The position numbers were made by a program, and so were the translations under genes. A stretch of DNA of 63,972 bases, counting the filler, from Rhabdomonas costata (taxonomy: Eukaryota), in NCBI GenBank assembly GCA_019059605.1. It is 25 parts of 25 records of this genome, joined end to end, with 100 filler letters (N's around TTAATTAATTAA, not from the genome) between each part and the next. Parts side by side here need not be neighbours in the genome. Positions count along the whole stretch, not along the records: positions 46,114 to 48,575 come from JAHMHO010003303.1; 24 more parts are not named here. One strand, written 5' to 3'. Numbering within the stretch: position 1 is the stretch's first letter; each line of letters starts with the position of its first letter. Positions 46,990 to 48,494 of the stretch are shown piece after piece. Below the pieces are notes generated by a model. That model saw nothing but the letters and a program-made list of their open reading frames with translations, searched no databases and had not been told where the DNA came from.

Positions 46990-48494
46990 GGTTTGCCTCG
47001 CTAAACCACCTTAGCTTGAGCGACTCAATGCGCTCTCCACTCCACACACATCCATCTAGTTCAATGGAAAACTCACTCAGCGCAGAGGAGTTTCGGTGTG
47101 GATTTAAATGGATCTTGGGTCTTTCCATTTCGAGATGTGTGCTATCGCTGCCCCGGCTGCGGTCACACAGCAGACAAGTACGGTTTCCACGCCGTCACCT
47201 GCTTCCGTTCAGGAGCCATTGGTCGTGGCCACACTTTGCTTCGTGACGGCTTTTGGAGCACAGTGGTGTTGAGGTCGCCTGGGAAGCCTCTGCGTGAAGA
47301 CTGCGTCCATCCTGCCGATCAGTGGCGGCGGCCTGGAGATCTGATGTTTCTGTGGAGAGGCAATGAACGTGCCATGGACTGCACTATCATCACCACAGTG
47401 CTTCCCTCAGCAGTTTGCCACAACAACCTGATTGATGCGGCCGCATCAACCAAGCTGCGGGAAAACCAAACCCTTTGCCATGCTGCGGGTAGGAAGTGCT
47501 TTCCCTTTGTGGCCAACACATTTGAGGTCCTTCATTCTTCTGCGCGTGACTTTGTTTCGGCGCTCATATCGAAAGAGATTAGCAATCTTGTGGAAGGGAC
47601 CCCTGCGCAAAGAGGCCGCGTTATCTGGAGATAAGTTTCAGGAGCATCGTTTGTCCGTGAGGCTTGCCATATTTGTCGAAACAGCGCCATTGACCGCCCG
47701 CTGGGTTCCAAAAAGAGCCTCCTTGACCTCATCACGGCACGTCAATTGATTAGTGTGTCCTCCACGCTCACTGTCACCGACCACGTGCAGATGCTGGTGC
47801 TGGTGTGTTGTGACGCCAATGTGGTGGTGGAATCGCACCTGTACGAGCTTGTTGGCATTGTCCAGACCATAATTCGGGTAAAGTCCTTTTGGAAGCACAC
47901 CTTGAGCTCTTATACAATGGAGCACTCATGGTACCCACGCTGACCATCCGTGATTGTAGAATCACTGGCAACGTGACAATAAAAGCACGGTCGGCGACGG
48001 CTTTGGACACTCGGGGTGTACCAGAACTCACGACCTCATCAGCTATCACCATCCCCACCACTTTGTTTCCGCTTTTTGTGCGAATTGTGGACGGCCGGTA
48101 CCTCTCAGTAGAGCAACAAGCGCACGCCACAGTCTCTGACATGATGCAACTCGTCCAATCCCGCGAAGGAATTCCTGCAGAACAACAGAGCCTGCTACAC
48201 GTAAAACGTCAGCTTTGCCAGACTTGCCGGCTTATCGACGCCGGTCTAGTGTCAGGTTCAGATGTGACATTGGCTTTGACGCTTCGAGATGGCAACGCCA
48301 AAAAAACCCATTTCATGGGCACCAAATCCCCGCTATGTAGACAGGCCGAGGCACCGCATAGACAGGGCAAACTACACCACTGCCTGCCAGTGATCAGCTC
48401 AGCTTACAGGAAGACCACTCCGATCAGCCTCGCCCGCCATCAGACAGCCCCTTGGAGGTCTGCTTCCCGGAGGACCGGACCTCGAATCCCGTAA
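46990..48494 (+). mobile_element. 3' part of a CRE-like non-LTR retrotransposon: thumb, CCHC knuckle, RLE endonuclease, then two ubiquitin-like domains (degenerate copy)
   Basis: LSAEEFRCGFKWILGL; CPGCGHTADKYGFHAVTC..G....GH..LRD; RRPGD...AMDCTI; AASTKL...FPFVANTF. The frame continues into UBL1 (~47785-47985) and UBL2 (48066-48293, EGIPAEQQ.L...LTLRDG). Confidence 0.88.

Follow-up and report, generated by a model that had tools for sequence, protein, structure and literature searches.

We analysed a stretch of 63,972 nucleotides from Rhabdomonas costata (NCBI GenBank assembly GCA_019059605.1), which we refer to as the window. Its plus strand carries at positions 46931–48494 a dead, 5'-truncated copy of a non-LTR (long terminal repeat) retrotransposon of the long interspersed nuclear element (LINE) type, equipped with a restriction-like endonuclease (RLE). 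The reading frame of this copy (copy 1) once continued past the endonuclease into two ubiquitin-like domains (UBLs), here called UBL1 and UBL2. The window contains 25 parts of 2,455–2,496 bp, apparently sorted by length, with runs of N around a TTAATTAATTAA linker between them. Because the 25 contigs were joined artificially, those standing side by side are uninformative about each other, and the genuine context of the element is confined to positions 46114–48575. A second, more decayed copy of the element (copy 2) was found on another contig of the window.

Translation of the plus strand from stop to stop gave an open reading frame (ORF) of 204 residues (47020–47634), the continuation of the same frame past its TAA stop (47635–47943) and a third ORF of 226 residues (47814–48494), which lies in a different frame from the first. 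The 204-residue ORF contains a CCHC zinc knuckle followed by the RLE (47125–47631, plus strand). The knuckle comprises Cys 47149, Cys 47158, His 47188 and Cys 47200, and the conserved positions of the RLE are His 47230, Glu 47299, a Pro-x-Asp motif at 47332–47340, Asp 47377 and Lys 47452. In an alignment of 50 sequences (the window and 49 relatives, numbering from 47098) Cys18, His31, Cys35, His45, Pro79 and Lys119 are invariant, and Cys21, Glu68, Asp81 and Asp94 are conserved in at least 90% of the sequences. We take these columns to be the CCHC knuckle together with the His/Glu/PD/D/K set of restriction-like endonucleases.

Sequence searches of Pfam and the PDB with the 204-residue ORF resulted in no match, so that a fold search was required. 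An AlphaFold2 model of 47098–47631, calculated with the 50-sequence alignment as input, has a mean predicted local distance difference test (pLDDT) score of 87.6. In a Foldseek search against the PDB, ranks 1 to 5 are all occupied by R2 proteins (PDB-entries 9nl2, 9dou, 9nl3, 8iby and 8gh6) with E-values from 1.3e-4 to 6.6e-3 and template modeling (TM) scores, relative to the query, of 0.37–0.58. The next hits are resolvases of the RecU/Hjc type and the endonuclease-like domain of Prp8.

A word-index search for longer proteins yielded one relative, P0001 (454 residues, 48% identical). A profile of P0001 and the window was then compared with 1.84 billion representatives and gave 1,961 matches at E ≤ 0.001, 47 of them at E ≤ 1e-30; all statements on relatives with P-numbers refer to the best 150 of these 1,961 matches plus their cluster mates. 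An RVT_1 reverse transcriptase (RT) domain is located directly upstream of the homologous region in 14 relatives (P0019, P0052, P0087, P0105, P0137, P0016, P0054, P0089, P0118, P0007, P0002, P0015, P0154 and P0167). P0003 gave no RVT_1 match; its N-terminal sequence is too short. The best PDB sequence match of the P0019 RT is the RT of R2 (E = 5.6e-4), and a protein atlas search with P0019 returned solely RVT_1 clusters. Taken together, the R2-like fold, the conserved residues and the RT upstream in relatives show that the piece in the window encoded the C-terminal portion of the protein of an RLE-type non-LTR retrotransposon. An earlier reading of this DNA from its sequence (the original prediction) had proposed a non-LTR fragment with CCHC knuckle and RLE; this was borne out by the fold search, in which R2 proteins match best although Pfam was empty, and by the upstream RT of the relatives. 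The class assignment, RLE-type with an R2-like fold, was established by comparison with R2 proteins of the PDB; CRE-like, the label given in the original prediction, is a candidate assignment.

The frame of the RLE is interrupted by a TAA at 47632–47634 (plus strand), which is a nonsense mutation within the ancestral ORF. The corresponding codon is Ala (GCA) in copy 2 and also Ala in L001, an intact relative from a metagenome contig described below. The tblastn high-scoring segment pairs (HSPs) of four relatives cross this position: P0002 (47122–47742), P0009 (47074–47742) and P0068 (47389–47781), each with a single HSP, and residues 207–493 of L001 ORF2, which align to 47053–47883 with 48% identity. 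The site is thus read through in relatives, and no conserved stop separates the RLE from UBL1. The RLE is followed by a conserved linker (47635–47784, plus strand) of the sequence VSGASFVREACHICRNSAIDRPLGSKKSLLDLITAR..., with 25 of 42 residues identical to L001. The same VSGASFVREACHICRNSAIDRPLGSKKSLLDLITAR motif follows the RLE in P0021, P0064, P0085, P0068 and others. The second interruption is a 4-bp deletion after 47884, where copy 2 reads TGTGGT and copy 1 T----C. Beyond it, residues 496–652 of L001 ORF2 align to 47886–48356 (40% identity; joint E-value with the first HSP 2.8e-100), and exactly two L001 residues are lost between the two HSPs, which are the two codons destroyed by the deletion. 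The original prediction had already led the CCHC/RLE frame past a single TAA, with Ala in the other copy, and past a 4-bp deletion into the frame of UBL2; L001 agrees with it on both points, and the other relatives agree on the TAA.

UBL1 (47785–47988, plus strand), in which the deletion is located, is a diverged ubiquitin-like domain that lacks Gly-Gly at its end. The window UBL1 alone is weak in profile searches, with 12.7 bits in Pfam (below the cut-off), an E-value of 0.11 for its C-terminal half and nothing significant in a PDB search. For UBL1 of both copies, with X at the breaks, a comparison with the family UBL profile in hhalign gave a probability of 81.8% (P = 1.1e-5) in exact register, columns 22–67 on columns 22–67. 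An ungapped superposition on UBL1 of L001 resulted in 9 of 33 identities for the N-terminal and 16 of 32 for the C-terminal half. A linker that is poorly conserved with respect to L001 (47989–48065, plus strand, within the open frame 47814–48494) connects UBL1 to UBL2.

UBL2 (48066–48293, plus strand) is a ubiquitin-family domain of 76 residues ending LTLRDG. Its score against PF00240 is 31.8 bits alone and 39.3 bits (E = 5.5e-10) within the 226-residue ORF, compared to a gathering cut-off of 25.4 bits. In phmmer it aligns without gaps to ubiquitin residues 3–76 with 23 identities, counted by hand, in 74 columns (about 31%), and it shares 37 of 75 residues with UBL2 of L001. A word-index search with the UBL ORF among proteins of near length gave no match. 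The domain ends in RDG, with the Asp codon GAT at 48288–48290, and the window copy thus lacks a Gly-Gly in register with ubiquitin residues 75–76. Since the orthologous UBL2 of L001 and its sister record L002 ends LSLRGG, LRDG derives from LRGG. Comparison of LRGG in L001/L002 and RGG in P0009/P0013 with RDG in the window indicates that the Gly-Gly was kept by intact relatives and lost in the dead copy. For UBL2, the original prediction had stated the same extent, ungapped alignment and identity count and had placed LTLRDG one step from LRGG, in line with the GAT codon and the orthologue; its ungapped alignment of UBL1, obtained by restoring residues from copy 2, is supported by the hhalign register and by L001 UBL1. 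The profile searches that it suggested do give ubiquitin, directly for UBL2 and by way of hhalign and the L001 orthologue for UBL1.

The intact relatives came to light when metagenome contigs were searched with an RLE alignment of 7 sequences, a search that yielded three loci, L001, L002 and L003. L003 is a related RLE ORF without a UBL. L001 and L002 are two records that differ by 0.9%, and their RLE is 58% identical to that of the window (95 of 163 residues). Both contain an intact ORF2 of 887 residues (400–3063 in L001) with a pre-CCHC region, the CCHC knuckle, the RLE, a linker of the window type, UBL1, a short linker and UBL2. UBL1 of L001 alone matches Pfam ubiquitin with 34.4 bits (E = 1.9e-8) and UBL2 of L001 with 54 bits (E = 1.5e-14). 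The frame continues after UBL2 with a spacer, a partial third UBL (UBL3, 2377–2607; 22.3 bits, E = 1.1e-4, below the cut-off) ending LLGAG and a low-complexity tail of 150 residues, in which no Pfam family was found. No poly(A) is present within 835 bp past the L001 stop. In L002 an upstream frame of 824 residues represents the RT (RVT_1, E = 3.9e-11).

These loci specify the architecture of the element. In the active ancestor one frame encoded the CCHC knuckle, a PD-(D/E)XK endonuclease, a linker, UBL1 without Gly-Gly, a short linker, UBL2 with LRGG and a poorly conserved tail. Judged from the relatives, the ancestral RT would have preceded these parts, either in their own frame or in one adjoining it. 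The UBL module is a component of the element itself and not a neighboring host gene. Of the ancestral order RT-CCHC-RLE-UBL-UBL put forward in the original prediction, the RLE-UBL1-UBL2 part stands and is intact in L001/L002; the inclusion of the RT in the same polypeptide is a candidate reading for L001/L002, where the RT occupies a separate frame, and the prediction of two UBLs has to be extended by the partial third UBL and the 150-residue tail of the intact relative.

The UBL module is maintained by selection in intact relatives. L001 and L002 differ in 19 of 753 codons, with 12 synonymous and 7 non-synonymous differences (binomial P = 4.8e-4 against a 1:3 expectation). Between copy 1 and copy 2 the ratio of non-synonymous to synonymous substitution rates (dN/dS), which had been proposed as a check on the UBLs, is 0.52 for linker and UBL1 in the true frame (0.45 for UBL1), compared to 0.82 and 1.9 for the two incorrect frames (Fisher P = 0.007). 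This pattern fits two subfamilies that diverged partly while active. In P0168 and P0169 the UBLs are 83% identical without gaps, the RLEs 52% and the linkers 29%; in this lineage no other part of the protein is as constrained as the UBL.

UBLs behind the RLE are not confined to the window copies but occur in independent lineages from other sources. P0068/P0160 contain a UBL after the RLE that matches PF00240 with an E-value of 5.6e-17. A joint profile of the P0009 and P0013 UBLs matches C-terminal domains of ISG15 (E-values from 3.8e-8 to 1e-4) and also ubiquitin, and their RGG end is in register with the last residue of ubiquitin. In P0048, P0164, P0168, P0169 and P0170 the UBL is the last domain; the ORF stops directly after it, and there is no Gly-Gly. 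For this P0048 type, 28 of 31 PDB profile matches are ubiquitin proteins or variants, with single-domain E-values of 0.04 to 3, and the Pfam families YukD and Rad60-SLD stay below threshold; its ubiquitin-like nature is suggested by weak hits only. An AlphaFold2 model of this UBL, based on a 7-sequence alignment, has a pLDDT of 52.4 and was too poor for a fold search. P0169 has the same layout from RLE to UBL and no RVT_1 match.

In a FastTree phylogeny of 92 RLE sequences, P0009, P0013, P0048, P0164, P0168 and P0169 fall into the major clade of the window; P0068/P0160 and P0170, in which most of the RLE is missing, were left out of the tree. The other major RLE clade has short tails after the RLE, mostly of 40–70 residues. 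The single UBL of P0068 (residues 195–235) and UBL3 of L001 match over 41 C-terminal residues without gaps (z = 17), share the LLGAG end and resemble one another more closely than either resembles UBL2. Duplication or reshuffling of UBL modules has taken place in this clade. Given the patchy distribution of the UBLs and the lack of a detectable relation between UBL types, gain, loss, duplication or repeated capture must have happened, and repeated capture of UBLs, instead of one ancient fusion, is possible. The two-UBL module of the original prediction accordingly describes the window lineage, whereas related lineages have a single UBL, of at least two sequence types without demonstrable relation to each other.

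Two further observations concern other domains in these relatives. Residues 305–391 of P0137, a more distant relative, lie N-terminal to the RT and show a sub-threshold match to Pfam OTU, a protease family of the deubiquitinase type (E = 0.0053, 17.7 bits, cut-off 23.3 bits). P0087, P0105 and P0137, all of that branch, have tails of 300–790 residues after the RLE with a common GDC(F/C)FDA motif and without a Pfam family.

Copy 1 is damaged by three in-frame stops and three frameshifts within about 1.56 kb. Its first recognizable piece (46931–47053, plus strand) belongs to the pre-CCHC region, lies in a frame other than that of the RLE and contains two stops. It was located with tblastn by residues 193–233 of P0001 and 270–303 of P0002, and residues 175–209 of L001 ORF2 match 46949–47053. 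A short piece in the third frame with the end ...EEFRCGFKWILGL (47055–47123, plus strand; P0001 residues 220–260, P0002 residues 308–330) lies between frame changes near 47054 and 47124. These two stops and two frame changes, found by tblastn of the relatives, were not part of the original prediction. The 5' truncation point is at 46931 or just ahead of it, which is why the contig of copy 1 contains no RT. Downstream of UBL2 a tail extends to a TAA at 48492–48494 (48294–48494, plus strand); the L001 tail resembles it in the first ~15 residues only (8 of 14 identities). The remainder to the contig end (48495–48575, plus strand) closes with ...CCCCCAAAAA, and the true 3' end and the target junction lie beyond the assembly.

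Copy 2 (33326–33828, minus strand) extends from the last part of the RLE across the linker and UBL1 and is 74–85% identical to copy 1 in blastn. It has a 136-bp internal deletion and frameshifts of its own, and the contig end cuts it before UBL2, at the equivalent of 48040. Residues 398–527 of L001 ORF2 match it at 33773–33387 in tblastn. Copy 2 starts at the equivalent of 47421 and copy 1 at 46931, and their upstream flanks are unrelated. The different starts may reflect the variable 5' truncation of target-primed reverse transcription, whose other signs would be a defined 3' end and a target site; the 3' ends of both copies run off their contigs. A heavily frameshifted fragment of a related non-LTR element, with the end of an RT and a pre-CCHC region, is located at 16308–17416 (minus strand). 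It matches P0019, P0054, P0105, P0118 and P0137 with 26–37% identity, and the sequence downstream of this fragment gave no sign of an RLE or UBL.

Upstream of copy 1, outside the ORF, lies an A+C-rich flank of low complexity (46414–46913). Its composition is strongly strand-asymmetric, with about 8% G and about 39% A on the plus strand, a GC skew of -0.50 to -0.61 and an AT skew of +0.30 to +0.52. We considered this segment as a G-to-A hypermutated part of the ORF by permitting every A to be read as G, and rejected the idea, since the observed values of 32 and 27 compare with null means of 31.9 and 29.0 for shuffled proteins. The segment may be a decayed CA-rich repeat. The next contig contains (GT)n microsatellites at 48866–48894 and 49190–49232, and CA/GT-rich simple sequence seems to be common in the contigs. 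At 43566–44558 (plus strand) an open frame resembles a fragment of a dynein heavy chain, as judged by eye from the translation. It runs into non-coding-looking sequence, which suggests a eukaryotic gene with introns.

Based on the architecture of the element and its relatives we consider it likely that copy 1 is the remnant of an RLE-type LINE whose RLE-UBL1-UBL2 protein bore a built-in ubiquitin-like signal. The UBLs would act as a host-read signal on the RT-endonuclease protein. In the window lineage, we see an even chance that host deubiquitinases or UBL-specific proteases would cut after the LRGG of UBL2. Such a cut would strip a dispensable tail and leave the enzyme with a free ubiquitin-like C-terminus. 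The exposed UBL could bring ubiquitin-binding or repair factors of the host to the site of integration, control turnover or be conjugated. The roles named in the original prediction, namely turnover control, a junction cleavable by deubiquitinases and a decoy for host defences, are likewise putative. The putative processing sites end in LRGG (L001/L002), VRGG (P0009) and GRGG (P0013), all in register with the C-terminus of ubiquitin. In each case a residue other than proline comes next, and the tail beyond it is poorly conserved or of low complexity; the tails of P0009 and P0013 have 29 of 98 identities with 109 gap columns. Ubiquitin and ISG15 precursors are trimmed by host proteases after Gly-Gly. 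As the xRGG in register, the non-proline residue next to it and the unconserved tail correspond to this precursor layout, processing is favored. N-terminally extended ubiquitin stays conjugatable. The trimmed RT-endonuclease might even become a giant ubiquitin-like modifier, conjugated by the host either to itself or, where integration takes place, to proteins of chromatin or repair, an extension that we regard as improbable.

An alternative that deserves some weight, though we hold it only tentatively, is that the UBLs are integral, uncleaved interaction domains of the Rad23, Rad60/NIP45 or UHRF1 type, which would link the RT-endonuclease to host partners such as the proteasome, a segregase, or factors of repair and chromatin, with the LRGG left unprocessed. 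It would account for P0048, P0164, P0168, P0169 and P0170, which end right after the UBL without Gly-Gly and in which the UBL is the most conserved part (71–83%, no gaps). The missing Gly-Gly of UBL1 in the window and L001 and the appearance of Rad60-SLD as second Pfam match for several UBLs also agree with it. It leaves unexplained why xRGG is kept in the ubiquitin register in three otherwise diverged lineages, each time ahead of an unconserved tail; we know of no need for this motif in an integral UBL. Cleavage could also serve another purpose, with the UBLs as polyprotein junctions at which host deubiquitinases cut after UBL2 (LRGG) and UBL3 (LLGAG) and thereby replace a protease or 2A peptide of the element. 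Viral and ribosomal-protein ubiquitin fusions are cut at such junctions, and in L001 the junctions LRGG-G and LLGAG-M are followed by about 100 and about 150 residues of further coding sequence. The parts released in this way, however, would be poorly conserved and of low complexity: the tails of window and L001 agree in 8 of 14 residues over a short stretch, that of L001 has no Pfam family, those of P0009 and P0013 are about 30% identical with many gaps, and the P0048-type lineage has nothing past the UBL. We therefore regard polyprotein junctions as rather unlikely.

Two other explanations dispute that the module is part of a mobile element at all. The UBL could be a host gene or retrocopy beside one insertion, with the two window copies arising from segmental duplication, and it is true that the window holds just two copies, of which copy 2 ends before UBL2. 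This has a negligible probability in our view, because L001 and L002, from other sources, have the same order in an intact ORF at 48% and 40% identity, the RLE, the conserved linker and UBL1 lie in one continuous frame, the two copies differ in their 5' ends and have unrelated flanks, and a UBL follows the RLE in at least three further lineages. Alternatively, the RT-RLE-UBL proteins could form a domesticated host gene family with pseudogenes in the window. The purifying selection between L001 and L002 would be expected for such a family, and none of the loci showed target-site duplications, poly(A) ends or insertion polymorphisms. The 1,961 matches, however, are diverse, come mostly from short contigs and represent many lineages; the window contains decayed copies that are 5'-truncated at different points, along with another LINE fragment in a degraded state; and the R2-like RT and RLE are typical of mobile LINEs. 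Domestication is accordingly very improbable.

The favored account, a mobile RLE-LINE with a built-in ubiquitin-like signal, has to face several observations that weigh against it. The RT, the 3' end and the target site of the window's own element are absent from its contig. In L001/L002 a shift of one base at a stretch of five G (L002 2410–2425, L001 near 545) separates the frame of the RT from that of the RLE and UBLs. One extra G would restore a continuous frame as in the relatives (...LLRxxxGACRVEF...). The shift could stem from a mutation common to both loci, from a homopolymer error or from programmed frameshifting; the RLE-UBL frame downstream is under purifying selection despite it. 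Owing to this frame change, a single RT-RLE-UBL polypeptide is not demonstrated for the L001/L002 lineage. In P0164 and P0168 a putative RT end precedes the RLE and UBL in one frame, with matches to the C-terminal end of RVT_1 that are sub-threshold at 18.7 and 15.6 bits (cut-off 29.6). Among the best 150 of the 1,961 matches, 11 have tails of about 140 residues or more, and a UBL was found in only 4 of these. The UBLs of the P0048 type and the P0009/P0013 type are related with an hhalign probability of 0.1%, and the P0168 type reaches a z of 3.5 or lower; a single origin of all UBL types is unsupported by these values. It is the motif only that points to a putative cleavage after LRGG. The type represented by P0068 and UBL3 of L001 ends LLGAG, followed by Pro in P0068, and together with the P0048 type, which lacks Gly-Gly, it implies that a free Gly-Gly end is no general requirement. 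Finally, the positions of ubiquitin Ile44 and His68 are occupied in UBL2 by Thr and Ala (L001) or Leu and Ala (window), which weakens the simple notion of a ubiquitin mimic read by standard binding domains.

Among known systems the closest in fold are the R2 elements (Bombyx, Taeniopygia, Platysternon; PDB-entries 8gh6, 9dou, 9nl2, 9nl3 and 8iby), in which the CCHC knuckle and the PD-(D/E)XK RLE likewise come after the RT, all in a single large ORF. The identity in the fold alignments is only 11–15%. The R2 ORF ends shortly past the RLE, whereas the frame here runs on across two or three UBLs, a stretch of about 290 codons in the window copy and of about 480 in L001. In a further difference from R2, an Rfam scan found no family, and hence neither ribosomal DNA nor a spliced-leader gene, anywhere in the window. 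Elements of the CRE clade (CRE1/CRE2, SLACS, CZAR) are also RLE-type with a CCHC motif ahead of the endonuclease. The same scan showed no spliced-leader gene beside either copy, although a host spliced-leader gene may be unmodelled in Rfam and the 3' junctions lie beyond the contigs; a dinoflagellate spliced-leader motif is absent from the window with up to three mismatches allowed. We know of no UBL in the CRE clade.

Retrotransposon accessory domains include RNase H, esterases, methyltransferases and Ulp1/OTU proteases. The protease-bearing elements are mobile and carry a component of the ubiquitin/SUMO system, as does the element described here. NeSL-1 and Utopia-1_TSP encode a Ulp1-like protease, which is N-terminal to the RT in NeSL/Utopia (PMC4640811), Dualen-1_GCr from a cryptophyte encodes a C48 peptidase (PMC5029228), and Ginger and Helitron elements contain OTU or Ulp1 domains (PMC2836005, PMC6431247). 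Bao, Kapitonov and Jurka suggested that the ubiquitin pathway takes part in transposition (PMC2836005). The domains of NeSL-1, Utopia, Dualen, Ginger and Helitrons are proteases that remove modifiers; here it is the modifier-like domain itself, C-terminal to the endonuclease. No description of a retrotransposon-encoded ubiquitin-like domain was found in searchable full text, which comprises few subscription journals and not Repbase Reports.

Tandem UBLs, the first without Gly-Gly and the second with LRGG and extra residues, are known from ISG15/FAT10 and linear ubiquitin precursors. Unlike these free modifiers, the pair described here makes up the C-terminal portion of a long protein, with a length from about 900 to more than 1,200 residues. 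Virus-captured ubiquitin is another case of a selfish element with a ubiquitin-family sequence, and the baculovirus viral ubiquitin (PDB-entry 6kna) is among the phmmer matches of UBL2. Ubiquitin insertions of pestiviruses use host cleavage after Gly-Gly. Viral ubiquitin is nearly identical to that of the host, whereas the UBLs described here are old, diverged, duplicated and fused behind a retrotransposon endonuclease. The UBL behind a LINE endonuclease is no one-off capture, as it occurs in several lineages of one clade and is selected in intact copies. It connects LINE integration with the host ubiquitin system in a concrete way that can be tested. The RLE clade, abundant in environmental protist data, also enlarges the set of elements with which R2, currently under engineering for gene insertion, may be compared.

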